A DNA stretch of 64,000 nt from Desulfatiglandales bacterium (GTDB taxonomy: Bacteria > Desulfobacterota > DSM-4660 > Desulfatiglandales > Desulfatiglandaceae): assembly GCA_963662465.1 (NCBI GenBank), contig OY759599.1, positions 1,056,001-1,120,000 on the forward strand. The letters run 5' to 3'. Positions 10,444-48,847 of this stretch are shown here, piece by piece; the first letter of the stretch is position 1, and each line of letters begins with the position of its first letter. The position numbers and the translations under genes were made by a program. The notes under the pieces are model-generated. The model had not been told where the DNA came from and did no database searches. It saw only the letters and a list, made by a program, of their open reading frames with translations.

Positions 10444-12048
10444 ATGGATCAATTATCAAAAAAGGTGTTTCGATTCATTCATTTTTGGGTTCTCATCCTG
10501 TGCGGATTGCTGCTTTTGCCGTCTGGTGTTTGGGCGCAAAATCAGGCAAAGAGCATCCGAATTGCGGACGGCAAAGGAGACTGGGGTTATCCCAATCCCT
10601 ATCAACATTATCCCAGGGGGGCCGGGTTTTTGAGAATGGCCTGGGTTTTCGACACCCTGGTCTGGAAAGACGACAAGGGTGATATTCCGGCCCTGGCCAA
10701 ATCATGGCGATACGATCCCGAGACCCTGAGCTTCATTTTTAAACTCCAGGAAGGGGTTTTGTGGCATGACGGAAAACCCTTTACCGCGGGGGATGTGGTG
10801 TTCACCATTGAATACTTCAAAAAACATCCCTACCAGTGGGCAAGCGTGGATCAAGTGGCCGGCGCCGAGGCCCTGGGACCCCATGAGGTATCCATCAAGC
10901 TCAAGGGACCCTATGCGCCTTTCATGACCTACATCGGGGGGACCATGCCCATCATTCCCCAACATATCTGGGAAAAAGTGGATGATCCGAAAAGGTATCA
11001 TGCGCCGGAGGCTTACATCGGATGCGGCCCCTTCAAATTCGTGGATTTTGACAATGCCAAGGGGACATACCTCTATGAGGCCAATGAGAATTATTACCTA
11101 GGAAAACCCGCCGTCGATCGGTTGATCTACATCAAAGCCAAAAACCCTTTGATGACCCTTTTGAGTGGAAAGGCGGATCTGGTGAACATCAAACCCGATA
11201 TGGCCAAGCCACTGGAAAAAAAGGGGATGGTGATTTTGGAAAATCCAAGGGGCTGGAACAAAAAGTTGATGATCAACCATCAAAAACCACCCCTGAACGA
11301 CAAACGCTTTCGAAAGGCCCTGGCCTATGCCATCGATCAGCAGGAGATTATTGACAAGGCCCACAGGGGTTTCGGGTCCCCCGCTTCCTTTGGACTACTT
11401 TCCCCCGATCACCCGTTTTTTAATCCCGAAACGCCTAAGTACCCACACAATCCGAAACGGGCCGAGGAAATCCTGGTTTCACTGGGATATCAAAAAAACA
11501 AAGGCGGATATTTTGAAAAAAACGGTGTTTCCTTGAAACTGGAAGTGCTGGCCTCGAACATCACCGTGGCGGGGCAATCCACATCGGATCGGGATGGCGA
11601 GGTGCTGAAAAAACAGCTTCAGGATGTCGGCATCCAGGTGGACCTGGTGAACCTTGAGCAGGCCACGGCGGATTCAAAGGTCAGAAACTGGGATTTTGAT
11701 CTGACCATCACGGGGCATGGGGGTCTGCTGGGAGACCCCATGATTCTGGACCTCATGATCAGCCCCAAACTTGCGGGTTCCGTCAATTCCGCCCGTTACG
11801 GGGGCAACCAGGCGCTTCTTGAACTGTTGACATCCCAAATGACGGAAATGGACTTGCAAAAGCGAAAAGAACTGGTATACAAAATACAGGAAATTTACGC
11901 CGATGAACTTCCGGCCATCTCGCTCTATTACCCGGCCTCCATGACAGCCTATAACCCTAAAGCAGGGATCGTGTGGTATTACACCAAGGGGGGGATTGCC
12001 CTGGGCATCCCCATCGCGCAAAACAAGATGAGTCTCATTCAACCGTAA
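10444..12048 (+). CDS. ABC transporter substrate-binding protein, peptide/nickel family (SBP_bac_5)
   Basis: Signal peptide; PALAKSW, WHDGKPFTAGDVVFT, GCGPFKF, FRKALAYAID; AAGGAG RBS. Confidence 0.9.
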   Translation: MDQLSKKVFRFIHFWVLILCGLLLLPSGVWAQNQAKSIRIADGKGDWGYPNPYQHYPRGAGFLRMAWVFDTLVWKDDKGDIPALAKSWRYDPETLSFIFKLQEGVLWHDGKPFTAGDVVFTIEYFKKHPYQWASVDQVAGAEALGPHEVSIKLKGPYAPFMTYIGGTMPIIPQHIWEKVDDPKRYHAPEAYIGCGPFKFVDFDNAKGTYLYEANENYYLGKPAVDRLIYIKAKNPLMTLLSGKADLVNIKPDMAKPLEKKGMVILENPRGWNKKLMINHQKPPLNDKRFRKALAYAIDQQEIIDKAHRGFGSPASFGLLSPDHPFFNPETPKYPHNPKRAEEILVSLGYQKNKGGYFEKNGVSLKLEVLASNITVAGQSTSDRDGEVLKKQLQDVGIQVDLVNLEQATADSKVRNWDFDLTITGHGGLLGDPMILDLMISPKLAGSVNSARYGGNQALLELLTSQMTEMDLQKRKELVYKIQEIYADELPAISLYYPASMTAYNPKAGIVWYYTKGGIALGIPIAQNKMSLIQP

Positions 12049-12320
12049 ACCGGCAACCGTAAACCGTGAACGGTTACAGCTGAAGTTCCAAAACGCAAAA
12101 TGGCTACAGTAGGTGTAGTCAAACACAACGTCAACTTAACCCCTTCATAATATTATAATTTTAATGGATATTTTTTCTGCCGGTTTTGATGTGTAGCAAT
12201 AATGTTTATGAGCATCCCCTTTCCCGGCGGGTTTAAGCCTTTCTTTCCTCTATATCTATAACTCAAAATAAATGTGTGATTTCGCATAGTTACTTAACCC
12301 TGTCTGATTCTCCTGATTTT

Positions 12321-12337
12321 CCGGCATTACCATTGCA
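12321..12337 (+). promoter_or_regulatory. Sigma-54 (-24/-12) promoter for the Hdr/Nuo operon
   Basis: CCGGCATTACCATTGCA has GG-N10-GC spacing, ~150 bp upstream of the first operon gene. Confidence 0.6.
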
Positions 12338-12485
12338 GTATCTCCGTATGTAATACATCGTCAGACGCACCACCTTCATTTCGAGAACGGACCACTCTCA
12401 TTGTTTCAGCTTCCGTCCGTTGCTACTGACGGTCTAAAAGTTTAGATGTCCGGCAAATAACAGCCCACCCAAAGGAGACCTTACC

Positions 12486-13808
12486 ATGAGACCAGATAAT
12501 TACTCCGACGGAAACAACATTGAAAAGGTGGCAGGGTTCCAGGTCCTTGAAAACCCATGCGTTTGGATGCGAGCGGGCGTGGTCAATTTCCGCATCTGCG
12601 AAAACCGTTACGACTGTGTCAACTGTGATTTTGATCGTAGCATGAGAAGGGCCATGACGGCGCAAGCGCCCCCGAAAGGGCGTGCGGCGCAGTTGGGCTG
12701 GGCCCGTGAGATGCGTCTAAAATATACGGGCGTCTTTAAGCCGTGTCGCTATTTTCTGACGGGAAAGCTGGGTCCGCCGGGACGATGCGAAAGGGATTAT
12801 GACTGTGATGGTTGCCCTATTGATATGATGTTGGGCTACCAACCCTTAACAACGGCCATTACCGAAGCGGAAAGCGCCCTGAAAGTCGAAGTAAGGCCCG
12901 AAATCCGGAATTCAGAACATTCCGGAAAGGAATGCATTTGGATGCGGGCAGGCGTGGTCAATTTTCACCTGTGCGAAAGCGATTACGATTGTTACCATTG
13001 CCTGTTCGATAGAAATATGCGCGAGGCCATGACCGCCCAATCGCCTTCTCAGGTCGAGGCAACATCATTATCTTGGGAAGATCGAATACAAAGCAGATTT
13101 GAAACCCTTGGCAACGAGTGCATTTACTTCATGGCCGGCCGAATTGATACACCAAAGGTTTGCCTTCAAAATTATGCATGTTTCTCTTGTCCGGTTCACC
13201 AAAAGCTGGCCGACCCAAACCGTGTCGCACCGATCCCCTTACACCCACCAAGCGTCCAAATGTCTTCCGGGTTCAGAGTCGCCGATGGTTATTATTATCA
13301 TTACGGCCACAGCTGGGTGCATGTCATTCACGGGGGATGCGTACGGATTGGGATCGATGATTTTATGGCAAAAGTATTCGGTCGGGCAAAACGAATTGAT
13401 TTGCCGCCAAATGACACGCCATTAAAACAGGGACACGTGGGATGGGTGTTGGCCCGAAACGGCCACAGGGCGCCCGTTCAATCACCCCTTTCAGGAAAGG
13501 TTCTGGCGGTTAATCGAAAAGTCCTCGATGATCCCGGTCAAATTCATGAAGATCCCTATGAAAACGGCTGGTTGTTCCACCTGGAACCTTCATTCCTGAG
13601 GCAGGAGTCTCAGATGCTCTATTCTGGAAAAACAAGCCGGCAATGGATTGAAAGAGAACATCAGGGGCTTCTCCAATTGATGGGACCCGAATATGAACGA
13701 TTGGCAGCCACGGGGGCGGAAACCATCGGAGACCTGTTTGGCGCCTGCCCCGAGTTGGGATGGACCCGGCTGGTGCAGCAATTTTTACGCACCGGCGAAA
13801 AAAAATAA
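12486..13808 (+). CDS. Two Cys-rich repeats fused to a GcvH-like domain lacking the lipoyl lysine
   Basis: 2x CxWMRAGVVNFxxCxxxYDCxxCxFD..CxYFxxG..CxxxYxCxxCP; GcvH-like HSWV..RIGIDDF..SPLSGKVLAVN..DPYENGW; AAGGAG RBS. Confidence 0.85.
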   Translation: MRPDNYSDGNNIEKVAGFQVLENPCVWMRAGVVNFRICENRYDCVNCDFDRSMRRAMTAQAPPKGRAAQLGWAREMRLKYTGVFKPCRYFLTGKLGPPGRCERDYDCDGCPIDMMLGYQPLTTAITEAESALKVEVRPEIRNSEHSGKECIWMRAGVVNFHLCESDYDCYHCLFDRNMREAMTAQSPSQVEATSLSWEDRIQSRFETLGNECIYFMAGRIDTPKVCLQNYACFSCPVHQKLADPNRVAPIPLHPPSVQMSSGFRVADGYYYHYGHSWVHVIHGGCVRIGIDDFMAKVFGRAKRIDLPPNDTPLKQGHVGWVLARNGHRAPVQSPLSGKVLAVNRKVLDDPGQIHEDPYENGWLFHLEPSFLRQESQMLYSGKTSRQWIEREHQGLLQLMGPEYERLAATGAETIGDLFGACPELGWTRLVQQFLRTGEKK

Positions 13809-13862
13809 CATCAACGGAAATTGCCAAAATTTTAAACCTGCAATGACATAGGGGAGAACGCC

Positions 13863-14258
13863 ATGAGAAGAGAAACCACCGGTTCCGTTCTGGTTGTGGG
13901 GGGAGGGATTGCCGGGATGCAGTCCGCTCTGGATCTTGCCAACTCAGGATATTACGTATACCTATTAGAAAAGAGCCCATCCATCGGGGGGGCCATGGCG
14001 CAGCTGGACAAGACCTTTCCCACCAACGACTGCGCCATGTGAATCATTTCTCCTAAACTGGTCGAGGTCGGCCGGCACTTGAACATTGAACTGATCACCT
14101 ATTCGGATCTGGAATCCGTGGAAGGATCCGCTGGGAATTTCAAAGTAAAAATCAAAAAACGCGCTCGAAGCATTGACATGAGCCGCTGCACCGGATGCGG
14201 CAGTTGCATTGAGCATTGTCCGGTAACCCATCAGGCAGTTAACTTCGGCCAGGCATAA
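13863..14258 (+). CDS. hdrA: Selenoprotein: N-terminal part of a split HdrA (FAD-binding start plus one 4Fe-4S motif), 131 aa; UGA at 14040-14042 read as Sec; absent from the ORF track
   Basis: [75 protein letters not shown]; near-identical to the start of the 21598 gene. Confidence 0.85.
14058..14075 (+). promoter_or_regulatory. Putative bacterial SECIS hairpin
   Basis: CTGGTCG-AGGT-CGGCCGG stem-loop 15 nt after UGA; identical in the second hdrA. Confidence 0.65.
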
Positions 14259-14333
14259 CCGCATTAAACGGCGAACGACGCACCAAAAATGGCTTAAACC
14301 GCGGCTTGCCGCTTTCATGGAGTTTTTTCTAAA

Positions 14334-14855
14334 ATGAATGAAACCCATCCCATTCTAAATGATGCTCCTTTGGCCATCGATTATCTGGCCTTGGACCGGC
14401 TGGTGGAGGAGAGGTTTAACAACGACAAAGAAAACCTGATTATGATCCTTCAGGCCATTCAGGCCCAATACAATTATCTTCCACAACCTACACTGGCTTA
14501 TCTTTCCGAAAAAATAGAAATTCCCCTGAGCCGTATTTACGGAGTGGCCACCTTTTACAGCACCTTCAGCCTTGAACCCCGAGGGAAAAACATCATCAGC
14601 ATCTGCCTGGGCACCGCCTGTCATGTGCGGGGCGCCGGGAGGGTGCTGGAACGGATTGAAGACATCTTGCACGTGGAAAACGGAGAAACCACCGAGGATG
14701 GGTTGTTTACCCTGGAATCAGTTCGGTGCATCGGTTGTTGCAGTCTGGGCCCGGTGGTCAAAATAAATGAAGATGTGCATGGCCGAATCGCTTCGGAGAA
14801 CCTGACGCAGATTCTGAATCATTACGGGGAATCCAAAATAAAACAGGGCGGATGA
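14334..14855 (+). CDS. nuoE: NuoE/HydC-like 2Fe-2S subunit
   Basis: GVATFYSTF, CLGTACHVRG, CIGCCSLGP. Confidence 0.9.
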   Translation: MNETHPILNDAPLAIDYLALDRLVEERFNNDKENLIMILQAIQAQYNYLPQPTLAYLSEKIEIPLSRIYGVATFYSTFSLEPRGKNIISICLGTACHVRGAGRVLERIEDILHVENGETTEDGLFTLESVRCIGCCSLGPVVKINEDVHGRIASENLTQILNHYGESKIKQGG

Positions 14856-14856
14856 C

Positions 14857-16758
14857 ATGAAGATTCAGCAAATAACGGATATAGATGAAATAGGCCGTCA
14901 TCAAAAGGAAATTCTTTATTTTCCCGAAGTCCTCACCGTCAATATGGGAATGGCGTCCTGCGGCATTGCGGCCGGCGCCGATAAAACCTTTGGGCGGGCC
15001 GCAGCCGAATTCGGTGAAAGCAAGGATATTCAGCTTCGAAAAACCGGTTGTCTGGGGTTTTGCGAAATGGAGCCCCTGGTGGAAATCTTTAAAAAAGGCG
15101 CTCCCAGGATTGTTTATAAAAACGTCACACAAGATAAAATCGCGGATATCATCAGCGGGTATTCGGAGGGCCGGTTTGACAAAAAACAGATACTGGGACA
15201 GATGCGCGATCCCCGGTCCCTGCTGGAAACGGAAGACCCGAATCCCCTTGAAGGCGTTGAACCCGTTCCGGATATCCCCATTCTGGAAGACATTCCGTTT
15301 TATAAACAGCAGATCAAGATCGCTTTACGCAACTGCGGTTACATTGACCCCGAGCGTATTGAAGAGTACATGGCCAAAGGCGGCTACAAGGCGTTTCTTT
15401 TGGCCCTCAAAGCCGATGCGCCTAAAAGCATTATCGCCGCCATCAAGGACTCGGGGCTGCGGGGGCGGGGGGGCGGCGGTTTTCCAACGGGGGCCAAATG
15501 GGAGAGTTGCGCGGCCCATGAGGGAGAACGCTTTATCATCTGCAACGCCGACGAGGGAGACCCCGGAGCCTACATGGATCGCAGCATCCTGGAAGGGGAT
15601 CCCCATTCCATTATTGAAGGCATGCTCATCGCGGGTCTGGCCATCGGCGCCAACAGCGGATTTCTCTATGTGCGAAACGAATATCCCCTGGCCGTGAAAC
15701 GGCTGGTCACGGCAATACGCCAGGCCACGGGTTACGGTCTTTTGGGGCACAACATCGCGGGTTCCAATTTTTCCTTTGAGATAAAAATATCCACCGGCGC
15801 GGGGGCCTTTGTTTGTGGTGAATCAACGGCGCTGATGGCTTCCCTTGAAGGGGAAGTGGGTCGTCCCAGGGCCAAATACATCCATACGGCGGAAAAAGGA
15901 TTTCGGGATAGCCCCTCCAACCTGAACAACGTGGAAACCTATGCCAATGTGCCGGCCATCCTATTAAAAGGCGCCGAATGGTTCTCCCAATTGGGAACCG
16001 ACAATAGCAAAGGAACAAAAGTATTCAGCCTGGTGGGCAAAATCAAAAATACGGGTCTCGTGGAAGTGCCCATGGGGACCAGCCTGCGCAGCATTATCTA
16101 TGACATGGGGGGCGGAATTCCCAAAAAGAAAGTCTTCAAGGCCGTGCAGACCGGCGGCCCTTCGGGGGGCTGTATTCCGGACCAATTTTTGGATCTGGGG
16201 GTTGACTTTGATGCCTTGAAAAAGGTGGGGTCCATCATGGGGTCCGGCGGCATGATCGTCATGGACCAGGATACCTGCATGGTGGACGTGGCCCGGTATT
16301 TCCTGGATTTTCTCAAGGAGGAATCCTGTGGCCAGTGCAACCCCTGCCGGGAAGGGATTAAACGGATGCTGGAAGTGCTGACTCGCATCTGCGATGGAGA
16401 AGGCCGGGAAGGAGACATTGAACTGCTGCAAGAGTTGGGCGGCATGGTCCGGAAGTTTTCTCTCTGCGGCCTGGGCACTTCGGCCCCCAATCCGGTGTTG
16501 ACCACCATCCGTTATTTCAGGGACGAGTATGAGGCCCATATTCGGGACAAAAAATGTCCGGCCGGGGTTTGCAAAACCCTGTTTCATTACGAAATTGACG
16601 AAAACGCCTGCACCGGTTGCCGGCTGTGCGCCCTCAAATGCCCCCAGGAAGCCATTACCGGAGAAAAGAAAAAACCCCATCAGCTGGCGCAGGAAAAATG
16701 CATCAAGTGCGGCATCTGTTATGAGGTGTGCAAATTTGGCGCGATTGTAATTGCTTAG
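14857..16758 (+). CDS. nuoF: NuoF/HydB-like NAD(H)/FMN-binding subunit with N-terminal thioredoxin-like 2Fe-2S and C-terminal 2x4Fe-4S domains
   Basis: SGLRGRGGGGFPTG, CNADEGDPGAYMDR, GAGAFVCGE, ESCGQCNPCREG, CTGCRLC, CIKCGIC. Confidence 0.92.
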   Translation: MKIQQITDIDEIGRHQKEILYFPEVLTVNMGMASCGIAAGADKTFGRAAAEFGESKDIQLRKTGCLGFCEMEPLVEIFKKGAPRIVYKNVTQDKIADIISGYSEGRFDKKQILGQMRDPRSLLETEDPNPLEGVEPVPDIPILEDIPFYKQQIKIALRNCGYIDPERIEEYMAKGGYKAFLLALKADAPKSIIAAIKDSGLRGRGGGGFPTGAKWESCAAHEGERFIICNADEGDPGAYMDRSILEGDPHSIIEGMLIAGLAIGANSGFLYVRNEYPLAVKRLVTAIRQATGYGLLGHNIAGSNFSFEIKISTGAGAFVCGESTALMASLEGEVGRPRAKYIHTAEKGFRDSPSNLNNVETYANVPAILLKGAEWFSQLGTDNSKGTKVFSLVGKIKNTGLVEVPMGTSLRSIIYDMGGGIPKKKVFKAVQTGGPSGGCIPDQFLDLGVDFDALKKVGSIMGSGGMIVMDQDTCMVDVARYFLDFLKEESCGQCNPCREGIKRMLEVLTRICDGEGREGDIELLQELGGMVRKFSLCGLGTSAPNPVLTTIRYFRDEYEAHIRDKKCPAGVCKTLFHYEIDENACTGCRLCALKCPQEAITGEKKKPHQLAQEKCIKCGICYEVCKFGAIVIA

Positions 16759-16877
16759 GAGCTGTTAGCCGTTAGCTATTAGCAGCCCACTAGTCCAGAG
16801 TGAACGCCATAGGGCCTAAGGGCTAATGCTGACAGCTAAACCTAATTTCTAACAGCTAACAGCTAAGAGGACGAGCC

Positions 16878-19800
16878 ATGGTAAAATTTACGATCAATGA
16901 CAAGGAAGTGTATGGAGAGGAAGGCCAATATATCCTCGACGTGGCCAAAAAGGCCGGCATTGAAATTCCCACCCTCTGCCATCATGAAGCCCTGGAACCC
17001 GCGGGCATGTGTAGATTATGCACCGTTGAACTCTTTGACGGGCGCAGAACCAAATTTGTGACCGCTTGCAACTATCCCATCTGGGAAGGGATGGAAGTTT
17101 TTACGGATACCGAATCCATCATCGAGGGCCGTAAACTCATTGTGGAGCTACTGCTGGCCCGGTGTCCCGATGTGCCGGTGATTAAAGACCTGGCCCAAAA
17201 ATACGGCATTTCAAAGCCCCGGTTTTTGGAAGAGGGTGATGATTGCATTCTCTGCGGCCTTTGTGTTCGCATGTGCGAAAAGGTGGGCAACAGTGCCATC
17301 AGCTTCACGGGCCGCGGGGTAGAGATGAAGGTGGATACGCCTTTTTCCGTGCAGACCGAATTCTGTATGGGGTGTGGGGCGTGTGCCTCGGTCTGTCCCA
17401 CCGGGCATATCAAACTTGAAGACATTGCCAGACATCAGGTGAAACCCATTCCATCGGAATACGACATGGGCCTGAAAGGCCGCAAGCCCATTTACGTGCC
17501 CTATGCCCAGGCGATCCCCAATACGCCCGTTATTGACCGGGACATGTGCATGCATTTCAAGACCGGCGCTTGCCAGGTATGTACGGAATTCTGCGGGGTA
17601 GATGCCATTGATCATATGCAGCAGGACGAAACCATTGAACTGGAAGTGGGTTCCATTATTCTGGCCCCCGGATTTCAACCTTTTGACCCCTCCAGGCTGA
17701 CCCATTACGGATACGGTCGGCATTCCAATGTGATGACATCAATGGAGCTTGAGCGCATTCTGTCCGCCTCCGGACCCACCCTGGGTCATCTCACGCGGCC
17801 TTCCGATGGGGGGGAACCCAAGAAGATTGCCTGGATCCAGTGCGTGGGAAGCCGGGAAGAGAACCGCTGCAATCACGGATATTGTTCTTCCGTATGTTGC
17901 ATGTACGCCATTAAGGAGGCGGTCATCGCCAAGGAGCATGCGGCCGGCGATCTCGATTGCGCTATTTTTTTCATGGACATGCGCACGGGGGAAAAAGAGT
18001 TTGACCGGTATTTCATACGCGCACGGGATGAAATGGGTGTACGGTTCATCCGTTCGCGCATTCATAGCATTGACAAGAAGCCCAATGGTTCTGAAGACCT
18101 TCAAATTACCTATGTGTCGGAAGACGGGCATCGCAAGATGGAATTGTTTGATATGGCCGTGCTTTCCATTGGCCTTGAACCTTCGGAAAGTCTTCCTGAA
18201 TTGGCGTCCACATTGCAAATTGAGCTGGATGCGGACGGCTTTGTGAAAACCCAGGGAGAGATGCCCACCGAAACCACCCGCCGGGGCGTTTTTTCCTGCG
18301 GCGCCGCCTGTGGTCCCAAAGATATCCCCCAGTCCGTGGTAGATGCCTCAGCATCGGCCGCGGCTTCTGCCGTGCTTCTGGTCGATTCTCGAAATACACG
18401 GGTGCGGAAAAAGGAATATCCTGAAGAGAGGCTCATAACCGCGGAAAAGCCTCGCATCGGCGTGTTTGTCTGCCATTGCGGCATCAATATCAGCAGTGTG
18501 GTGGATGTTCCCGCCGTGCGGGATTATGCAAAAACCCTTCCCGGCGTAGTCCATGTGGCGGACAATCTATTTACCTGCAGTCAGGATACACAGCTTTCCA
18601 TACAGAAGACGATTCGAGAAAAGGGCCTGAACCGGGTGGTGGCGGCGGCATGCACGCCCCGCACCCACGAACCCCTGTTTCAAGAGACCCTTCGGGAGGC
18701 CGGGTTGAACCCCTATCTCTTTGAATTTGCAAATATTCGAGATCAGGATGCCTGGGTGCATAAAAATGATCCCGAGGCGGCCACGGAAAAGGCCATGGAC
18801 CTGGTGCGTATGGCGGTCTCAAAGGCGGCATTGCTGGAACCCATCCAACCGCTGGCCCTGGAAGTTTGTCCGACGGCCCTCGTGGTGGGCGGCGGCATCG
18901 CCGGCATGAATGCGGCACTCAACTTGGGGGATCAAGGATTTTACACCTACCTGGTGGAGAAAAATGAGCAGCTTGGGGGCCAGGCGCGAAACCTCTCTCA
19001 AACCTGGAAGATTGCTGATGCACAAAAATACCTGGCCCAATTATGCCGTAAGGTTTTAAACCAAGCCAACATCGAAGTGTTGACCGGCGCTGAGATTAAA
19101 AATGTTATGGGCTTTGTGGGGAATTTCAGGACCACCCTCAACCATAAAGGAGGTGAAAAGACATTAAATCATGGCGTCGTCGTTCTGGCCACCGGAGGCC
19201 ATGCCTTTGAGACGCGGGAATACCTTCGCGGCCAAAGCGATCGGGTCACCTGCTGGCACGAATTGACGGATCTCTTTACAAAGGAGCCCGAGCGCCTGGA
19301 AAAGGCCGATACGGTTGCGTTCATCCAGTGTGTGGGATCCCGTGAGCCAAAACGTCCTTACTGCTCTAAAATCTGTTGCACCGCCTCGATTCTGCAGGCC
19401 ATTGGGTTAAAAAAACAGAAACCGAGTTTGAATGTATATATCCTGTATCGGGAAATTCGAACCCCCGGCCAACGGGAACACCTGTATCGGGAAGCCCGTT
19501 CCCTGGGCGTGGTGTTCATCCGCTATACGCTGGATCATAAACCGGTGGTAACACAGGTTTATGATGGCTATGAAGAAAAATTGAATATTCTGGTGAAAGA
19601 TCGCATCCTGGGGTTGCCCCTTAGCATCAGGGCGGATTATGTGAATCTGGCGACCGCCATTTTGCCCGAAGCGCACCAGGCATTGGCACAATTTCTCAAA
19701 GTGCCGTTAAATGAAGACGGCTTTTTTATGGAGGCCCACGTAAAACTGCGGCCGGTTGATTTTTCTTCCGACGGCGTATTTGTCTGCGGTCTGGCCCATT

Positions 19801-20726
19801 ATCCAAAATCCCTCGAAGAATCCATCTCCCAGGCCCAGGCCGCCGCCATGCGGGCCGCCGGCGTGTTGGCCCGAAAAACCATTTCCGTGGAACCCATCAT
19901 CAGCGTGGTGGATCAGACCCGATGCGTGGGTTGCGGCCTGTGTGAAGCAACTTGCGCCTTCGGCGCTATTCGGCTGGTCGCGATTTCGGAAAAAGGATAC
20001 CGGGCCGAAAATAATCCGGCCCTGTGTAAAGGATGTGGGCTTTGCGCGGCATCGTGCCCTCAAAAGGCCATCGACATGATGCATTATCGCGACCGGCAAT
20101 TCCACGCGGCCATTGATGCGGGGGGCCTTACCGCACGCCGGTTCAAAACAAAACGCGCGCAACAAGCCGAAATCGACGCTTTCAAAGTCGTTTCAGGATA
20201 TCAATTGGCCGATGATCGCTACTATCATCGGGGCCACAGCTGGGTTCGCCTTGAGCGCGGCGGCCGCGTCAAAGTGGGAATGGATGATTTCATGGCCAGA
20301 ACATTTGGACAGGCTAAAAAATTCCTGTTGCCTGAAAAAGGCGCAATTCTGGGGCAAGACCGGAAGGGTTTTGCCTTCAGGCGTAACGGCCATTCAGCAA
20401 CAGTTTTATCTCCCGTGACGGGAAAAGTTTTTTATGTGAACCGAAAAGCCCTGGAAAACCCTGAACTCATACACCTGGATCCTTACGGCGAAGGCTGGCT
20501 TTTAATTCTGGACCCCCTGATTCTGAGAATGGATTTGAGCCATCTCTACAAAAAAGAGCAGAGTATCAATTGGCTGGAAGACGAAAACCGAAAACTCCTG
20601 GGACTTCTGGGTCCGGAGTATGAAAAACTGGCAGCCACAGGTGCCGCCCCGCTACCGGATTTGTTTGGAAACTTTCCCGAAATCGGATGGGATAATCTGG
20701 TCAAGACGTTTTTGCACAGCAGCTAG
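16878..20726 (+). CDS. hdrA: Fusion: NuoG/HydA-like Fe-S N-terminus + HdrA (remainder of module 1 and complete module 2) + C-terminal lipoyl-less GcvH-like domain
   Basis: [72 protein letters not shown]; then HSWV..VGMDDF..SPVTG..DPYGEGW. Confidence 0.88.
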
Positions 20727-20751
20727 TCTAACCCCTACCTTGGAGGAACAC

Positions 20752-21519
20752 ATGAACGACACATTCGAACCAAAGATACTGGCCTTTCTATGTAACTGGT
20801 GCGCCTATGCGGGGGCCGATCTCGCCGGCGTATCACGGCTCCAATATCCCTCCGGTATACGGGTCATCCGCACCATGTGCTCGGGCCGGGTGGACCCACT
20901 CTTTGTGCTGAAGGGGTTAAGTTCCGGTTTTGACAGCGTTCTGGTCAGCGGTTGACACATCGGCGAATGCCATTACCTGTATGGTAATGTTCATCTGGCC
21001 AGACACCTGGAAGTGGTTGAATATCTCCTGGATTTATCGGGTATTGGACGTGAACGCATGGGGCTGAAGTGGATCAGCGCCGCGGAAGGAAAAGAGTTTG
21101 CCGAGTATGTCAAGGAATTCAGCGATAAAACCAGAAGCCTGGGGCCCTTTAACGCGGACAGGTATGGCCTTGAACTGGCCGCCTGTGAACGGGCCCTGGA
21201 CTCGCCGAGGTTGCGATGGCTCATGGGAATGGAAATCCAGCTGACTGAAAAGGAAAATGTTTTTCACGAAAAAATTGAAAAAGCCCGTTATACCGAGCTG
21301 CTTCAAAAGGCGGGTGTTTCAGAATATGAAAAGGCATTAATTGGGGAATCCCTCAAAGACGGCCCTCTTTCGGTCAGGGAGATCGCCTTAAAAACCGGTC
21401 TTTCGGTCCATTGCGTGTCGTCCCGGCTGGGTGAACTGGAGCGTCTCCATCAGGCGGAACTGGGTCAATATCAGGCGTATGTCCCCCTGTTTGCCAATTC
21501 GGCCGTAACGATGACCTGA
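20752..21519 (+). CDS. mvhD: MvhD/FlpD-like 2Fe-2S selenoprotein with C-terminal HTH-like extension (UGA at 20953-20955 = Sec), 255 aa
   Basis: [32 protein letters not shown] (canonical GCHxGxCHY); joins ORFs 20620..20955 and 21013..21519 in one frame; GGAGG RBS. Confidence 0.88.
20971..20989 (+). promoter_or_regulatory. Putative bacterial SECIS hairpin
   Basis: Perfect 7-bp stem CATTACC-TGTAT-GGTAATG starting 15 nt after UGA, G in the apical loop. Confidence 0.7.
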
Positions 21520-21597
21520 CCCCAAAAGAAGGCCGAGGTTGAATCTGTTTTATACCCCGGGATAGCGCAATGACGCATATGCGAAACGGAGGAAAAA

Positions 21598-24500
21598 ATG
21601 CCCCTTAAAATAGATCATGAAAAAGTGGGCGCCGTTATGGTGATCGGCGCCGGCATCGCCGGCATGCAGGCGGCCCTGGATCTGGCGGGCGCGGGTTACT
21701 ATGTTCACCTGTTGGATCGTTCGCCCAGCATTGGCGGCATGATGGCCCAGTTGGACAAGACCTTCCCCACCAATGACTGCGCCATGTGAATTATTTCTCC
21801 CAAACTGGTCGAGGTCGGCCGGCATTTGAATATCAATATCATTACGAATTCGGAAGTGGAAGCCCTGGAAGGGGTCCCGGGGAATTTTTCAGTCAAGCTC
21901 AAGAATTATCCACGCGCCATTGATCCTGACAAATGCACCGGGTGCGGACAATGCAGCCAGGCATGTCCGGTGACGGCCATCAATGAATTTAATTGCGGCC
22001 TGGATCTCAGAGCCGCCACCTACATTCAATACGCCCAGGCCGTGCCCCTCGCCTACGCCATTGACCGGGAGGTCTGTATCGGATGCGGATTGTGCCAGAA
22101 AATTTGTCTGGCCGGGGCTGTTTGTTATGATGAGCAACCCAGAAAAACCCAACTGGCGGTGGGGGCGTTGGTGCTGGCCATGGGGATGGAAGTTTTTGAC
22201 GCCGCAACCCTTGAGGCATACAGCTATTCAAAATCCCCCAATATTGTAACCAGCCTTGAGTTTGAACGTATTTTAAGCGCCTCCGGGCCATATGCGGGGC
22301 ATCTCACCCGGCCCTATGACCGGGAAGAACCGCAAAAAATTGCATGGTTGCAATGTGTCGGGTCCCGCAGCCAGAATGGGGGCCATCCCTATTGTTCCTC
22401 GGTCTGCTGCATGTACGCCATTAAGGAAGCGGTTATCTCTAAGGAGCATGCCCGCGGCGATCTCGATGCCGCCATATTTTTTATGGATATGCGCACCTGC
22501 GGGAAGGATTTTGAAGAATACTACCACCGCGCCGAATATGAACACGGCGTCCGGTTTATCCGGTCACGGGTTCACAGCGTGAATCCGGTGGGAGACGGGG
22601 ACCTGGAAATTGATTATGTGGATGAAAAAGGGCGCTGCAGAACGGAAATTTTCAACCTGGTGGTATTGTCCGTTGGATTTCAGGTGGGAATGGAAACCGT
22701 CCAACTGGCCCATCGTCTGGGCGTTGAACTGGATCACTACCATTTTGTCCGGACGGGCAGTTTTCAGCCGGTGAGTACGAATCGTCCCGGGGTTTATGTT
22801 TGCGGTACCCTTCAGAGTCCCAAGGATATCCCCCAGTCGGTCATGGAAGCCTCCGCCGCCGCCGCGGCCGCAAGCACCCTCTTGAGCGACAGACGCTGGT
22901 CCCAAACCCGGACCCAGACCATGCCCCCGGAAACCAACGTTTTCGGCGAACCACCCCGCATCGGCGTTTTTGTATGTCAGTGCGGCATTAATATCGGTGG
23001 CATTGTCAACATCCCCGAAGTCGTGGCATACGCTCGATCACTCCCCCATGTGGTGTACACGGAAGACAACCTCTACACCTGTTCCCAGGATACACAGGTT
23101 AAAATGTCACAGGTCATTCGTGAGCAGGGCATCAACCGGGTGGTGGTAGCCGCTTGTACGCCCAAAACCCATGAACCCCTGTTCCAGGAAACATTGCAAA
23201 ACGCGGGACTTAACAAGTACCTGTTTGAGATGGCCAACATTCGGAACCAGGATTCCTGGGTACACAGCCGTCATCCGAATCTTGCCACTGAAAAAGCCAA
23301 GGATCTCATCCGAATGGCCGTTGCCAAGGCAGCCCTCCTTGAAGCCCTGCCCGAGATCGAACTGGATCTGAATCCGGTATCCCTGGTTATCGGCGGCGGC
23401 GTGGCGGGTATGACCGCGGCGAAAAATCTGGCTGAACAGGGATATGTCGTCCATCTGGTGGAGCGGTCCCATATCCTTGGCGGCCAGGCCAACAACCTTT
23501 TCAAAACATGGCAGGGGGAAGACATTCAGGGATTTCTCCAAACCCTCATTCAAAGTGTTGAAAACAATCCCCTGATTCATTTGCACCGGTCCACGGAGTT
23601 AACCCGGGTCGATGGCTTTGTGGGCAATTTTCAATCGGTGTTGACCCCTTCCCATGGGGAGGCGATCCACCTGGACCATGGCATCGCCATTGTTGCCACG
23701 GGGGGGAAAGAGTTTAAGCCCTCAAGCTATCTTTATGGGCAGGATCCACGGGTGCTCACCCAGCTGGAACTGGATAGAAAATTCATCGAGAAGGATCTGG
23801 ATCCGGCAAAAATCGCCACGGCCGTCTTTGTGCAATGCGTTGGCAGCCGCGAACCGGAGCGCCCTTATTGCAGTCGCGTGTGCTGCACCCACACACTGGG
23901 AAACGCCCTGGAGCTGAAACAACGCAATCCTCAGATGAGCATTTTCGTATTGTATCGGGATCTCAGGACCTACGGGAAAAGAGAAGATCTTTATCTCCGC
24001 GCCCGAAAAGAAGGCATTGTTTTCATACGATACGATCTGGAAGATAAACCGACGGTTGCATCCGGGGAAAAGACCCTCGAAATTATTGCGCCGGATCCCA
24101 TTCTGGAAAAACCCATCAGAATTGAAACAGATTTGCTGATCCTGGCAACGGCCATAGTGCCGGAGCCGGAAGGGGCATTGGCCAATTTTTTCAAAATTCC
24201 CGTCAACGATCAGGGATTCTTTATTGAAGCCCATGCCAAACTGCGACCGGTTGATTTTGCCACCGAAGGGGTTTTCCTCTGCGGCCTGGCCCATTACCCC
24301 AAATCACTGGATGAAAGCATTGCGCAAGCCCTGGCCGCCGCCTCCCGGGCATCCGGGCTGCTGGCTTCGGGCAAGGTCTCCATCAGCGGCACGGTCGCCC
24401 AGGTCAATCCTCGATGGTGCTCCCGATGTGGTGTTTGCGAAAACATCTGCCCCTTCAACGCCCCTTCCCTTGCCGAAGACGGACCGGCTGAAATCAATGC

Positions 24501-24609
24501 CGTACTTTGCAAGGGGTGCGGCTTGTGCATCGCATCGTGTCGCAGCGGCGCCATTCACCTGAAAGGATTTGATGAATCGCAGATTATGGCCATGATCGGT
24601 CAGGTTTAA
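21598..24609 (+). CDS. hdrA: Double-module HdrA-like flavo-Fe-S selenoprotein (UGA at 21787-21789 = Sec), 1003 aa
   Basis: VIGAGIAG..TNDCAM-UGA-IISPK; two QCVGSR..YCSxVCC modules; IGVFVCQCG; terminal ferredoxin motifs; ORFs 21598..21789 and 21826..24609 are in the same frame. Confidence 0.9.
21805..21822 (+). promoter_or_regulatory. Putative bacterial SECIS hairpin
   Basis: Same CTGGTCGAGGTCGGCCGG hairpin as 14058-14075, at the same distance from UGA. Confidence 0.65.
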
Positions 24610-25450: not shown

Positions 25451-26752
25451 TCAACTTTTCAATTTCTTTATCATTGAACGCAGTTCTTCGATCTCAGCCT
25501 GTTGTTTCTTAAGTTGTTTCTCAAATTGATGTTGTTGCTCCTTCATGAGGTTTTTCTGGTCCTGATTTTCAGTCTTCAACTCCTTAACAGCTTCAACGAG
25601 CACGGCCGTGAGTTTGGTATAGGACACGCCCTTGAACCCATTCGCATCCTCGGAAACCAGTTCCGGTATGGTTTTTTCCACATCTTGAGCTACAAGCCCG
25701 ATATGCTTTCCATTTTCAAAACCTGCGTTCGGAAATGCATTTTTTTTCCATTCGTAGGTAACTCCCTGAAGGCTGGCCACCTTTTCCAGGGAAGATTTCA
25801 GGGGCTGAATATTTTGTTTCCATCTCTGGTCTGAACTGCTGTAGCTGGCGGTTGCTCTGAAGGCACCGTTTATCACTACGTTTCGAGTTTCAAAGTCACC
25901 CCAGATGAGCGGTTCGGCATCATTGGAATTATGGATATAGAGTTTGTTGCTCCCGGTTTCACTATATCCGGCGCTTTTCCCCAAGAAAACGTTTCCCGAA
26001 CCCGTTGCATTACTATATCCGGCAGAGTGTCCGATAAATGTATTATAGTCGCCACTGGTATGTTGGTGCCCATTCGAAGTACCCAGAAAAACATTGCCAC
26101 TTGCATTGGCATTTTGGTATCCTGAATGGTATCCGAGAAAAACATTCGAACTCCCTAGTAGGTTGCCTTCTCCCGCGGATTTGCCAAGAAAGACATTATA
26201 AGTGCCTCCTGTACTATCATAGCCCGCGTAAGCACCCACAAATGTGTTGTTGTTGGATGTGTTGTCATGTCCTGCATTAGACCCTAGAAAAGTATTAAAG
26301 TCACCGCTTACATTGGTTCGCCCCGAAAGTCGTCCCAAAAAGGTGTTGTCATATCCTGTGGTGTTGTGATTACCTGAACTTGAACCCAGAAAGGTATTGT
26401 TGTTTCCTTGATTTAAATATCCGGCATAATACCCCATTGCAATGACACTGCTTCCTGTGTTGCCACGCCCAGCATAGTATCCCATAAAGCAGTTGGCCGA
26501 GGTCGTATTGTTTCTTCCTGAATCTGCGCCGTAAAAAGAGTTTTGGCTTCCAGTACTGCTGGCACCTGCATTCATACCGTAGTAAGTGTTGCTGTCGATT
26601 TCCGAACCACGAATTTCAATTGTAGCGTCCTCTATGGTTTTTGCAGCGTTAGTTGTTCCAACGGGTTTGGTTTCTGTTTCTTCCTCCGCAAAGAGATTTC
26701 CAGCACAGAACAGAAATGCCAAAAGGATTGAAACGAGGATAGATTTTTTCAT
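25451..26752 (-). CDS. Secreted fibre/adhesin-like protein with ~14-aa NTFxGxxAG repeats and C-terminal peptidase S74 intramolecular chaperone
   Basis: Signal peptide; repeated NTFLGxxAGxxN; SSDQRWKQNI..GLVAQDVE..VSYTKLTAVLVEAVKEL; terminal coiled coil; AGGAGG RBS. Confidence 0.85.
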   Translation of the reverse strand: MKKSILVSILLAFLFCAGNLFAEEETETKPVGTTNAAKTIEDATIEIRGSEIDSNTYYGMNAGASSTGSQNSFYGADSGRNNTTSANCFMGYYAGRGNTGSSVIAMGYYAGYLNQGNNNTFLGSSSGNHNTTGYDNTFLGRLSGRTNVSGDFNTFLGSNAGHDNTSNNNTFVGAYAGYDSTGGTYNVFLGKSAGEGNLLGSSNVFLGYHSGYQNANASGNVFLGTSNGHQHTSGDYNTFIGHSAGYSNATGSGNVFLGKSAGYSETGSNKLYIHNSNDAEPLIWGDFETRNVVINGAFRATASYSSSDQRWKQNIQPLKSSLEKVASLQGVTYEWKKNAFPNAGFENGKHIGLVAQDVEKTIPELVSEDANGFKGVSYTKLTAVLVEAVKELKTENQDQKNLMKEQQHQFEKQLKKQQAEIEELRSMIKKLKS

Positions 26753-42118: not shown

Positions 42119-43389
42119 GAATTTTTTTCTTGAGTATGTTGTGGGGTCTCTGTTTCATGCTGTTCACGCCTGTTTGTCAGTGTGAAACGCCCATTCGAAT
42201 CAGTGATTTTCTGTCCGGCGCTTCAACGGATGACTTTCTGCCGGCAGAGAAAGAGGTCCTTTCCTTTTTGGAGAAAAATCAGGACGCGCCTTTTTTGAAT
42301 GAGTTGGAATTCCGGTTGAACGTTGATGAGTTTGATTACGATCGGCAGGAGTTTGCCATCCGTTTCAAAACCCGGAGCTTTGGTGAAATGCGGGATCTCA
42401 AAAAGCTTGCCCTTGCAGGCATGGCATCCCAGGAAGCACAATACGGACTGCTGCTCCAGCGGGCCTTGAAAAGGAGATATGATATTGTTCTTGAATACCT
42501 TTACTGCCGTGAAATGATCACCGCTTATGGGGAACTGACGAAAGTGTGTGAAGATCGGCTTCATGTGCTTAAAAGGAGTTCAGAGGTTCCAGGCGTGGAT
42601 CCGTTGAAACTCAGTTATGCGCTTGTGGATGCTGAAAACGATCTACTGGATGTGGAGATGGAAACCGAAAGGTTAAAAGACCGTTCCAGGCTGATTTCCG
42701 ATGAAATCCGGAGAGATATGGGGACGAACAGCCCCATTGCCTTTGAAAATGAAAAAAGAGTGGCGATAAATGACATTACAAATGAGATTCGGCAAATTGC
42801 CGAAGTTCCGGCGGTGACAGCCGAAATTCAAAGCGCCCAAAAAAAAGCTGATCTGGCGGCGGCCCGTTATGCGCTGGAAAAATCGCGGAATGGCGCGTGG
42901 TTCAGCTTTATTGAAACCGCCTACGATCTGGAACAACGGTATGATTTTGAAAAAGCCTTTTCCATTGGATTCGGCATTACAATACCCATCGGCACAACGA
43001 GCAGGCCGGAGATGCGGGAAAAAAAGCTAAAGGAATTGAATGCCAAAAGGGTCTGCGAAATGCTCAAACAACGGAACCGGGACGAGACGCTCCGTCTTTC
43101 AAATGAGTTGCTGCACTTGATTCGCCGGTATGAACGCTTTTACGAAAAAAAGCGATCCAGCGGTGGAAAATGCCACTACGATGTCTGGCAACGCACGGAG
43201 GGAACTGATCCCATGATTTTGCTGAAAATCAGGGAATCCATGTTGAAAAAACAGATCGGGAAAACAAAGCGCCTCTTTGAAATCTTCAGGTGCTACACCA
43301 ACCTGCTGGATGTTTCCGGAAAACTGCTCGAAAAACCGTTTAGAAATTATCTGACCCATGCCCGGGAGCATTTCGAATTCCATGTCTGA
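42115..43389 (+). CDS. TolC-like outer-membrane channel candidate
   Basis: Signal peptide; two repeats of a beta-strand pair followed by long helices (FSIGFGITIPI); stop-start overlap with the HlyD-like gene. Confidence 0.55.
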   Translation: MRIFFLSMLWGLCFMLFTPVCQCETPIRISDFLSGASTDDFLPAEKEVLSFLEKNQDAPFLNELEFRLNVDEFDYDRQEFAIRFKTRSFGEMRDLKKLALAGMASQEAQYGLLLQRALKRRYDIVLEYLYCREMITAYGELTKVCEDRLHVLKRSSEVPGVDPLKLSYALVDAENDLLDVEMETERLKDRSRLISDEIRRDMGTNSPIAFENEKRVAINDITNEIRQIAEVPAVTAEIQSAQKKADLAAARYALEKSRNGAWFSFIETAYDLEQRYDFEKAFSIGFGITIPIGTTSRPEMREKKLKELNAKRVCEMLKQRNRDETLRLSNELLHLIRRYERFYEKKRSSGGKCHYDVWQRTEGTDPMILLKIRESMLKKQIGKTKRLFEIFRCYTNLLDVSGKLLEKPFRNYLTHAREHFEFHV

Positions 43390-44164
43390 GATGCCCTCCT
43401 TGCTGGAACGTTATGAGTTGAAATTCGTCATACCGGAGCGCATGGTGGATTCCATTTCCGATTTTGCTTCGGTTTATTGCAGGCCCGACCGCCATTCGGA
43501 ACAAAGCCCGGACGGATTTTATTCCGTTTACAGCCTTTATTTTGATTCCCCGGATTTTCTTTTCCTCCGAAGAAGGCAGGAGGGGGTGGCAAACCGATTC
43601 AATATGCGGGTTCGCACCTATAACAAAGACAGCGGGATGCCCTGTTTTCTCGAAGTCAAACAGAAAAGAGACGGGATCACTCGAAAATACCGGACAAAGG
43701 TTGAAGATGAAAACTGGGAGTGCATACTGGAAAGGGCGGACCGCGGATATCGGGGGGTTGGCGAAAAAGAGAATGCCGACCTTTTTGTCCGACTGGCCTG
43801 TTCCTACGGGGCTTCACCTAAGGTGCTTACCTCTTACCGCCGAAAAGCCTGGGTTTCGGTGGTGGATGACTACGCGCGTGTCACCTTTGACAGGGAACTG
43901 AGATGTCAGCCCGAAGAACGATGCATGCTTATTCCCGATTCCCGACGCATGACTGCTTATGATAACAGCACCCTGTTCGCTTCTGAATGCAGTATTGTTC
44001 TGGAACTGAAATGTTATGCCGCCAAAGTTCCCTTGTGGATGCTGGACCTGATCCGATATTTTGATCTTTGTCGGTGCAGTTTTTCAAAATATGTGAACAG
44101 CATGAGCGCCATATGGGAACAATGGGGCTACGACCGGGGAGACAGGACGGCCGCGGTACAGTGA
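43382..44164 (+). CDS. VTC-domain (polyphosphate polymerase-like, TTM fold) protein
   Basis: RYELKF, VYSLYFDS, RVRTY, FLEVKQK, YRRKAW, RVTFD, VLELK, FSKY motifs. Confidence 0.88.
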   Translation: MSEMPSLLERYELKFVIPERMVDSISDFASVYCRPDRHSEQSPDGFYSVYSLYFDSPDFLFLRRRQEGVANRFNMRVRTYNKDSGMPCFLEVKQKRDGITRKYRTKVEDENWECILERADRGYRGVGEKENADLFVRLACSYGASPKVLTSYRRKAWVSVVDDYARVTFDRELRCQPEERCMLIPDSRRMTAYDNSTLFASECSIVLELKCYAAKVPLWMLDLIRYFDLCRCSFSKYVNSMSAIWEQWGYDRGDRTAAVQ

Positions 44165-44198
44165 AACCTACGGGCTTTCTGAAAAATGAAAATTCATT

Positions 44199-44278
44199 TT
44201 TACAAAACATTTACAAAACCTTGAAAAGCTCCTGATAAAGGATTTACGAACAGATGATATATTGAGGGCAGCATGAAA
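44199..44278 (+). promoter_or_regulatory. Promoter family 1, copy 3 (upstream of first cotH)
   Basis: Identical 29-bp core plus CCTGATAAAGGATTTACGAAC. Confidence 0.75.
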
Positions 44279-44330
44279 GCGGATGCTTGGGTAACGATTC
44301 CAACAAAAAATCAAACAGGGGAGTTGAATT

Positions 44331-46361: not shown

Positions 46362-46381
46362 ACTGACCGGGCGGCTTTGGT

Positions 46382-46412
46382 CATCGTTCCCACGCGGAGC
46401 GTGGGAACGATG
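46382..46412. repeat. REP-like palindrome, may also act as an RNA hairpin between genes
   Basis: CATCGTTCCCACGC-GGA-GCGTGGGAACGATG, 14-bp perfect stem. Confidence 0.75.
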
Positions 46413-46479
46413 CGCCTGACAATGAAAGCGGATCCTGAGTGACGATATCTTTGGAAACCATAAAAAGGGGTTGGATTGA

Positions 46480-48057: not shown

Positions 48058-48100
48058 AGGAACAAACCGGTATTGACAACCCATAAAAGGAGATAAAACC

Positions 48101-48382
48101 ATGAAGACCATTAAAAAAATCGCTATCGCAGGTGTGATATTCAGCTTGTGTACCGTAAACGCATTTGGAGCGGATACTGAAAAACAGCGGCCTGGGGGAC
48201 GACATCAGGGGCCGCCGCCGGAGGCCTACACCGCCTGCGAAGACAAAGCCGCGGGCGATACGGCTGAGTTTGTAAGCCCCCATGGGGATACGGTAACGGG
48301 CGTTTGTGAACAGGAAGGCGATCGGATGGTCCTGCGCCCTGATAATCCGCCTCCTGACAACAGGGAAAAGGGGAAGAACTGA
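48101..48382 (+). CDS. Small exported protein with GPPPEA..C..C motif
   Basis: AAGGAG RBS; signal peptide; two Cys in the mature part. Confidence 0.75.
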   Translation: MKTIKKIAIAGVIFSLCTVNAFGADTEKQRPGGRHQGPPPEAYTACEDKAAGDTAEFVSPHGDTVTGVCEQEGDRMVLRPDNPPPDNREKGKN

Positions 48383-48469
48383 TTGGAACAGAAAACCGCG
48401 CCAAGGTCTTTTTGCCTGTTCATAAACAGCGGAAGAAACCTATGCGGCAATCATTAAATCTGAAGTAGT

Positions 48470-48507
48470 TCCCAGCATCCACATTTCTCTTTCGGTGGGT
48501 GCTGGGA
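48470..48507. terminator. Probable terminator hairpin
   Basis: TCCCAGCATCCAC..GTGGGTGCTGGGA stem downstream of the operon. Confidence 0.5.
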
Positions 48508-48589
48508 TGGATATTCAACAATTCAGCGGCGATAATTCTGATTTCAGTGTTGTTCTGGATACCGATGGTTAGAAACATCGCCAGGCCCC

Positions 48590-48714
48590 TTTCCCGCATG
48601 ACCGACGCATCGGACGGCGTTCCTCAAAATGTTTGACAGGGTACGGCGAAGAAGGTTGTCAACACCCCAGATGGAAGCATCGTCAACCACACGCTTCAGA
48701 ATCTTCACCTCCTC
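48590..48714 (-). pseudogene. Histidine kinase N-box fragment joined to promoter family 1 copy 4
   Basis: LLRRTLSNILRNAVRCVGHAG resembles LLRRALSNVLRNAVRYAGHEG of 28935..30482. Confidence 0.7.
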
Positions 48715-48795
48715 TTTACAAAACATTTACAAAACCTTGAAAAGACCCTGATAAAGGATTTACGAACAAATGACACATTGAAGGCAGCATGAAAA
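48715..48795 (+). promoter_or_regulatory. Promoter family 1, copy 4 (upstream of second cotH)
   Basis: Identical 29-bp core plus CCTGATAAAGGATTTACGAAC. Confidence 0.75.
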
Positions 48796-48847
48796 TGGAT
48801 ACTTGGGTAACGATTCCAACAAAAAAATTAAACAGGGGGATTGAATC

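Follow-up and report, generated by a model that had tools for sequence, protein, structure and literature searches.

What does an H-protein domain that cannot carry lipoate do at the end of an electron-bifurcation protein? The question is posed by an operon in a 64,000-nucleotide (nt) stretch from a Desulfatiglandales bacterium, which we call the window (positions 1056001-1120000 of contig C1 of the complete 8.16-Mb source genome, G000). Its seven co-oriented genes on the + strand (12486-24609) encode NuoEFG-like, HdrA and MvhD proteins together with a GcvH-like domain, found both as a free cysteine-rich protein, here GcvL, and as the C-terminus of an HdrA. Does this domain dock the redox module onto an electron acceptor? 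Or, is it part of a regulatory circuit? The answer that we favour, at a probability of roughly 55%, is that a two-component system induces a Bfu and HdrA module serving an output encoded elsewhere, while GcvL mediates interactions within the regulatory circuit, into which its fused copy tags HdrA. The HdrA-GcvL fusion is genuine and under purifying selection. The operon and its control region are laid out as follows.

12102..12120, + strand: putative activator site, a palindrome (core CTACA-N5-TGTAG) some 220 nt upstream of the promoter
12321..12337, + strand: sigma-54 (-24/-12) promoter motif
12486..13808, + strand: gcvL; GcvL, 440 amino acids (aa), with two 8-Cys units, a lysine-less H-protein fold and a helical extension of ~55 aa
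13863..14258, + strand: hdrA-N; HdrA N-terminal piece, 131 aa, with flavin adenine dinucleotide (FAD)-binding GxGxxG, CxxU (selenocysteine, Sec60) and one CxxCxxCxxxC motif
14334..14855, + strand: nuoE; NuoE/BamG/BfuC-like [2Fe-2S] subunit
14857..16758, + strand: nuoF; NuoF/BamH/BfuB-like flavin mononucleotide subunit, with five B2-site ligands C474, C512, H561, C567 and C572
16878..20726, + strand: nuoG'-hdrA-GcvL; NuoG' (BamI-like), the rest of a tandem HdrA and a GcvL domain in one chimeric protein of 1282 aa
20190..20723, + strand: the fused lysine-less GcvH-like domain, residues ~1105-1282 of the 1282-aa protein
20752..21519, + strand: mvhD; MvhD, 255 aa, Sec68, with a BamF-like C-terminal extension that has weak winged-helix matches
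21598..24609, + strand: hdrA2; tandem HdrA (BamE-type), 1003 aa, Sec64, with the Lys motif in module 1 only

In three of the genes a UGA falls in frame where a Cys is conserved (hdrA-N U60, mvhD U68, hdrA2 U64), and these genes are whole only when it is read as selenocysteine. This layout agrees with the first-pass annotation, which had described seven co-oriented genes behind a sigma-54-like promoter (the site at 12321-12337) with the GcvH-like domain both free and fused.

Both domains, in the 440-aa protein and at the C-terminus of the 1282-aa protein, match PF01597 above the Pfam cut-off. They fall under the NCBIfam cut-offs for TIGR03077 (not_gcvH, 51 against 144 bits) and NF045810 (GcvH_rel_desulf, 27 against 150). 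In alignment with the true GcvH of the genome, the column of the lipoyl lysine holds Gly in both, as expected from the earlier claim that they cannot be lipoylated. Among 16 fusions the residue is Gly in 15 and Ser in one; Lys stands at this place in only 3 of the 94 rows of the alignment, and of 150 representatives the motif was found in 139, 6 of them with Lys. An AlphaFold model of GcvL built from the 94-row alignment (pLDDT 87.1, pTM 0.76) superposes on H-proteins with a Z of 17.1 and a root-mean-square deviation of 1.4 Å over 131 residues, which places it in the H-protein fold, with an 8-Cys unit before the fold and helices after it. The second Cys quartet is conserved in 88-89 of the 94 rows. 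The invariance of the first four Cys in this alignment (A3) is by construction, the rows having been chosen for the motif, and is not evidence. The 8-Cys unit matches only zf-CHY (E 5e-4, below the cut-off), and its best Atlas match, at 0.80, is unnamed. No fold match to the unit came from the whole-model search, in which one domain filled the list, and this is not evidence of a new fold.

GcvL therefore shares its fold with GcvH (PF01597; PDB 1dxm, 1onl), from which it differs in lacking the lipoyl lysine and in having N-terminal Cys units and a C-terminal helical extension. It also resembles LbpA of the sHdr sulfur-oxidation system, an H-protein-like fold encoded beside hdr-like genes. However, all 95 LbpA proteins retain the lysine and are accompanied by maturation genes in the accessible part of the LbpA study (PMC6067878), and neither is present here. 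The domain is thus neither GcvH nor LbpA, although public clusters of such domains carry the automatic name glycine cleavage H protein. The true gcvH-gcvP genes lie elsewhere in the source genome. One open reading frame (ORF) of that genome, at C1:4709813-4710622 (L007:6813-7622), joins a truncated true GcvH to a C-terminal piece of GcvP2 and resembles what a deletion would leave of a second glycine-cleavage operon.

Is the fusion real? HdrA::GcvL proteins were found in 15 other 90%-identity clusters, which are 52-95% identical to the window protein, and then in two more, making 17 besides the window. For the fused domain, the ratio of nonsynonymous to synonymous substitution rates (dN/dS) is 0.13 against a sister genome (G010) and 0.08 against a relative (L146), compared with 0.14 for the HdrA core; all seven operon genes are at or below 0.30 against the sister genome. 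A contig of run X1, which may be the source sample, spans the HdrA-GcvL junction without a difference. The junction is also bridged in run X4, which belongs to a different study, by two contigs that differ from the window at 118 and 178 positions. An assembly artefact is rejected, and a unique decay product, the other fate that the first-pass annotation had allowed for, does not fit the spread and the dN/dS. RNA run X7 contains relatives only (for example, 170 differences over 20310-21500). Several other long GcvL "fusions" were dismissed as upstream ORF extensions.

It is very unlikely that the fusion is a neutral passenger of a local gene duplication and the operon a spare hdrA paralogue. 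The fused domain and neighbouring free domains do form one subclade (support 0.88) in a tree of 68 domains, in which the HdrA-fusion clade itself is unsupported, and the source genome has many hdrA paralogues; 7 to 13 per sulfate reducer are given in the accessible part of one survey (PMC5109826). However, the fusion has been kept across proteins 52-95% identical with a dN/dS of 0.08-0.13, like the HdrA core, and similar fusions arose with other enzymes, which largely refutes this explanation.

Other fusion partners of GcvL are a QmoB-like protein (HdrA-MvhD), a NarI-Fe/S protein, an NAD-dependent epimerase and an acetyl-CoA-synthetase-like protein; this last name comes from the sequence rather than from a profile. 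In the 68-domain tree both the QmoB-like and the Acs-like fusions are separate from those with HdrA. Among the fusion proteins surveyed, none joins GcvL to an M54 peptidase, a kinase or a regulator. The QmoB-like form also has a molybdopterin-dinucleotide-binding domain and sits in metVF-hdrA clusters (L211, L212, L213; P0048, P0051, P0177). The epimerase is fused to a Cys unit and GcvL (L151:14528-16969, L158, L159), directly after hdrA2 in some fusion operons, and the fusions to the acetyl-CoA-synthetase-like protein and to the NarI and Fe-S membrane protein are at L235:5176-7815 and in P0174.

What company does the domain keep? Of 301 genomes sampled from the phylum, 79 carry GcvL domains. 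Among the 80 closest GTDB loci, 60 contain a PAS kinase together with a sigma-54 regulator and an archaemetzincin (peptidase M54), hereafter the trio, as do 11 of 22 metagenome loci and 29 of 40 phylum loci hand-picked across families; NuoF is present in 2, 0 and 2 of the same three sets. M54 is found in 75 of the 79 GcvL-positive genomes against 44 of 222 others, counts in which kin are not independent, and across 95 rows its HExxH and Cys residues do not vary. In 11 of 22 loci un-split fusion operons have the trio immediately before or after them; contig ends cut several of the others. The redox neighbours, on the other hand, vary, with HdrA clusters in one class and Fe-S, NrfD or cytochrome modules in another.

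This company suggests that the H-domain is probably a regulatory protein-interaction tag rather than an acceptor dock. The first-pass annotation had proposed docking or regulatory adaptors linking the bifurcating module to an acceptor. A regulatory adaptor fits the gene context; docking to an electron acceptor is not supported, because the domain travels with the kinase, regulator and protease and is also fused to non-bifurcating enzymes. Could the acceptor nevertheless be involved, perhaps with the Cys-rich GcvL as an Fe-S or disulfide carrier? We consider this unlikely. The fused domain does come after the C-terminal ferredoxin domain of HdrA, and the conserved second Cys quartet would suit a carrier. 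The doubled Cys unit, moreover, occurs in 8 of 126 family members, every one of them directly upstream of hdrA, and that hdrA carries the fusion wherever its end is visible. Yet the same domain is found on non-bifurcating enzymes and on membrane-anchored proteins without cysteines, the constant partners of the family are signalling genes, and the accessible part of the study on class II benzoyl-CoA reductase (bioRxiv 10.64898/2026.04.10.717634) places the C-terminal ferredoxin domain at the input end of that enzyme.

Several observations weigh against the regulatory interpretation. The fusion partners and neighbours of GcvL are mostly redox enzymes, with HdrA in 19 of 27 long loci and HybA/NrfD-type modules in 13 of 40, and such redox-rich company also suits a structural role in electron transfer. 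In 10 of the 40 phylum loci GcvL has no M54 beside it, and 4 of the 79 genomes have GcvL but no M54 at all. Finally, the co-location of GcvL and the trio could stem from co-regulation alone.

What ties this operon to a particular trio? A sigma-54 motif (GGCW-N6-TTGC) lies upstream of 74 of 106 GcvL family genes, redundant loci included, against 4 on the antisense strand. The palindrome stands 205-220 nt above the motif in relatives as well. Of 59 non-redundant upstream regions, 20 carry it with no more than one mismatch, against a mean of 0.8 and a maximum of 3 after shuffling. The window has the only pairing of palindrome and sigma-54 promoter in the source genome. A kinase and regulator are encoded at C1:5278405-5281320, 4.2 Mb from the operon, and the palindrome is present in 33 of 76 loci whose regulator is at least 60% identical to this one (C1:5278405-5279751) and in 0 of 39 others. 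This trio is 85% (regulator), 75% (kinase) and 72% (M54) identical to the one directly after the operon in L146. Short remnants of hdrA2 (50 nt) and of the substrate-binding protein gene (106 nt) flank it, and in the sister genome the trio lies ~30 kb downstream of the operon. Taken together, the identity, the remnants, the association of site and regulator and the position in the sister genome make the regulator and kinase at 5.28 Mb the probable cognate activator of the operon, acting in trans.

Directly upstream of the displaced kinase are ORFs that, from sequence only, are integrase-like and phage-like (C1:5281916-5290076); they may mark the rearrangement. The substrate-binding protein gene precedes the operon in the window.

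10444..12048, + strand: family-5 ABC substrate-binding protein

Its homologue in L146 (80%) sits after the regulatory trio, downstream of the operon. In the window the gene is without its permeases, which follow the trio at C1:5.275-5.278 Mb.

The source genome has a second cassette of kinase, sigma-54 regulator, M54 and GcvL (C1:5056682-5081400; L001, L002), divergent from nuoEFG-hdrCBA-mvhD-metVF, with bamBCD-hdrA-mvhD beyond. Its type of regulator is without the activator site found in the window. A literature search, with subscription papers largely outside it, returned nothing on lysine-less H-domains with HdrA, archaemetzincin or NrfD.

The module under this control is related to known systems. 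The closest is BamEFGHI of Geobacter metallireducens, which has in common with the operon a NuoE/F/G'-type Bfu module, a long MvhD and a tandem HdrA whose Lys is confined to module 1, as far as the accessible text describes it (bioRxiv 10.64898/2026.04.10.717634); the operon genes are 40-60% identical to the bamE/G/H/I-type genes of the source genome itself. In both HdrA proteins the Lys of CCMYAIK is retained only in the first module, and in the available description of BamE, likewise with Lys in module 1 only, the second FAD is considered non-bifurcating (same preprint). The NuoF residues match the spacing of the five BfuB B2 ligands (Cys/Cys/His/Cys/Cys, the diagnostic His included), assigned from this spacing and not from alignment to a solved protein. 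The ligands are a mark of bifurcating BfuB in the part of the Bfu survey available (PMC9304861), and with them come two C-terminal [4Fe-4S] motifs and BfuC- and BfuA-type partners, so that the features of a Bfu module are present; unlike the Bfu family, no third-substrate (output) module is assigned here. The 125-aa extension of MvhD fits BamF in length (>100 aa longer) and has a winged-helix/helix-turn-helix match below the cut-off (E 0.002); the accessible part of the benzoyl-CoA reductase preprint has the winged-helix part of BamF contacting BamI.

The differences are equally plain. Here there are two tandem HdrAs, one of them split and fused to the BamI-like NuoG', and the selenocysteine of MvhD is residue 68, whereas that of BamF is near residue 19; no counterpart of the H-like domains appears in the accessible text on BamEFGHI (bioRxiv 10.64898/2026.04.10.717634). 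The "four HdrA modules" of the first-pass annotation are present, but as two tandem BamE-type proteins, the first split over two genes. One ferredoxin motif is on HdrA-N and its partner is on the 1282-aa protein, after the NuoG' part, and because the pair is divided in this way the two proteins probably reassemble the split HdrA in trans. The HdrA cores and MvhD also match methanogen HdrABC-MvhD(AG) strongly (PDB 5odc, 7bkb, 8rvu), in which the HdrA is not tandem and permuted as it is here and which has the HdrB/C and hydrogenase that the operon lacks.

Where is the catalytic partner? A profile search of the window gave no match to CCG (HdrB/BamD), AFOR (BamB), DsrC or NiFe-hydrogenase, and none of the 40 window ORF translations scanned against Pfam was a formate dehydrogenase, in line with the absences listed in the first-pass annotation. 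The lack of a partner is conserved, with hdrB, bamB and bamD in 0 of 22 HdrA::GcvL fusion loci. The genes are present elsewhere in the source genome, where the annotation had advised looking: HdrB/BamD, BamB, DsrC and hydrogenase genes, hdrBC and bamBCD, with bamBCD-type sets at C1:2.258, 5.074 and 7.954 Mb. Without BamB, BamC and BamD the operon is, on gene content, not a class II benzoyl-CoA reductase. Its redox part is predicted to work like a BamE-I input and bifurcation module, with no output subunit in the operon.

By homology, electrons from NADH and ferredoxin would enter this module, presumably induced through sigma-54, at NuoEF/NuoG'. The BamF-like MvhD would then relay them to both tandem HdrAs, in each case to the first FAD, with HdrA-N completing the split HdrA in trans and the output subunit perhaps encoded elsewhere. 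The GcvH-like domains, carrying no lipoate, would not be a route to the acceptor. They may instead mediate protein interactions within a widespread circuit that comprises the PAS kinase, the sigma-54 regulator and the archaemetzincin. The free GcvL with its Cys fingers, as first gene of the regulated operon, might be a metal- or redox-sensitive feedback component, and the fused copy might tag HdrA into the same circuit for docking or proteolytic turnover.

Regulatory hydrogenases are paired with PAS kinases, as in HupUV/HupT and HoxBC/HoxJ, and by analogy the HdrA pair could be a dedicated redox sensor without catalytic output, its flavins reporting the state of NADH and ferredoxin to the kinase through the fused H-domain and the Cys-finger GcvL. 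This is a possibility to which we give a low probability. In its favour, both an NAD(H) input module and an output subunit are missing from the un-split operons, which run in the same direction as the trio; the kinase is predicted to be soluble (PAS, HisKA, HATPase), with a weak N-terminal Rossmann match in one homologue (E 0.0003); and neighbouring HdrA proteins often carry an inserted receiver domain. Against this, two full selenoprotein HdrAs of ~1000 aa with intact bifurcation motifs would be a costly sensor, and the BamF-like extension suggests docking to a BamGHI-type input module. The operon is also the target of the regulator, its product thus being more likely output than sensor, and many loci with GcvL and the trio are without HdrA. 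We are similarly doubtful of the wider version, in which the orphan tandem-HdrA/MvhD operon is a flavin-based redox sensor and lysine-less H-domains are a general docking code wiring HdrA, QmoB-like, NarI-Fe/S and NrfD modules to PAS kinase, sigma-54 activator and archaemetzincin. If true, it would mean a signalling use of an electron-bifurcating scaffold and would give the bacterial archaemetzincin a natural partner.

The operon has a mosaic history. Over its first 360 residues the 1282-aa protein shares 88-97% identity with a paralogue at C1:6364622. From residue 361 to 1080 the identity to this paralogue is 38-72%, against 58-85% to the L146 protein, in which the DNA shows a continuous, un-split hdrA reading through the Sec codon. 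The breakpoint is thus near residue 360, about nt 17950. HdrA-N, nuoE and nuoF are 92% identical to the same paralogous operon (its hdrA-N is at C1:6361707), a split-hdrA/nuoEFG operon that ends in hdrC-hdrB and is without GcvL. Segment trees of 26 sequences disagree accordingly: residues 195-355 nest among donor-type proteins and 400-1075 among un-split fusions, with key branches at 0.99-1.0; 5 of 17 fetched donor loci dropped out, not having been labelled by the ORF caller. The breakpoint is weakly bridged in X1, by overlapping contigs, and has its support from the sister genome and P0006.

The 5' ~4 kb of the operon is best read as having come by recombination from the paralogous split-hdrA/nuoEFG/hdrCB operon, with NuoEFG as a late addition. 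Of 201 order-level genomes, 67 have a match to the NuoG'-HdrA form, which is thus common, and only the source and its sister showed the NuoG'-HdrA-GcvL form of ~1290 aa; the full gene set of the operon was likewise seen in these two genomes alone. NuoG' is missing from 13 of the first 15 fusion clusters. Since nuoE/F is found in 1 of the 22 fusion loci (some of them redundant, as L069/L151 and L148/L149, or cut by contig ends) and hdrB, bamB and bamD in none, the ancestral operon would be gcvL - hdrA::gcvL - mvhD - hdrA, without input and output modules, and recombination would have placed the input module in cis. The coherent new complex of NuoEFG, HdrA and GcvH that had been proposed for the locus is therefore not supported. 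In other loci a tandem HdrA has a response-regulator-like receiver inserted after the N-terminal piece (L049:15205-18648, L052, L053, L072, L086, L089), at about the same place where the NuoEFG cassette splits HdrA here and frequently beside GcvL cassettes.

After the operon, on the - strand (25451-26752), the window encodes a repeat-rich protein with a Peptidase_S74 chaperone domain. Further along, at 43358-50845, are two CotH-kinase genes, one gene with a VTC domain and another with an Lcl C-terminal repeat.

The operon thus encodes an electron-splitting module of a known type, reshaped by recent recombination and joined to a regulatory system not described before. Three things are new: the family of HdrA fusions, the origin of this one as a chimera, and the activator site. 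The chimera shows that bifurcating modules are swapped by homologous recombination inside hdrA. Candidate partners are also offered for the archaemetzincins, a family whose archaeal members had no activity on many test substrates in the accessible part of one report (PMC3427221). Among the many HdrA paralogues of sulfate reducers, one is here linked to a specific kinase, regulator and protease by a fusion, a promoter and an activator site, which makes its regulation directly testable.

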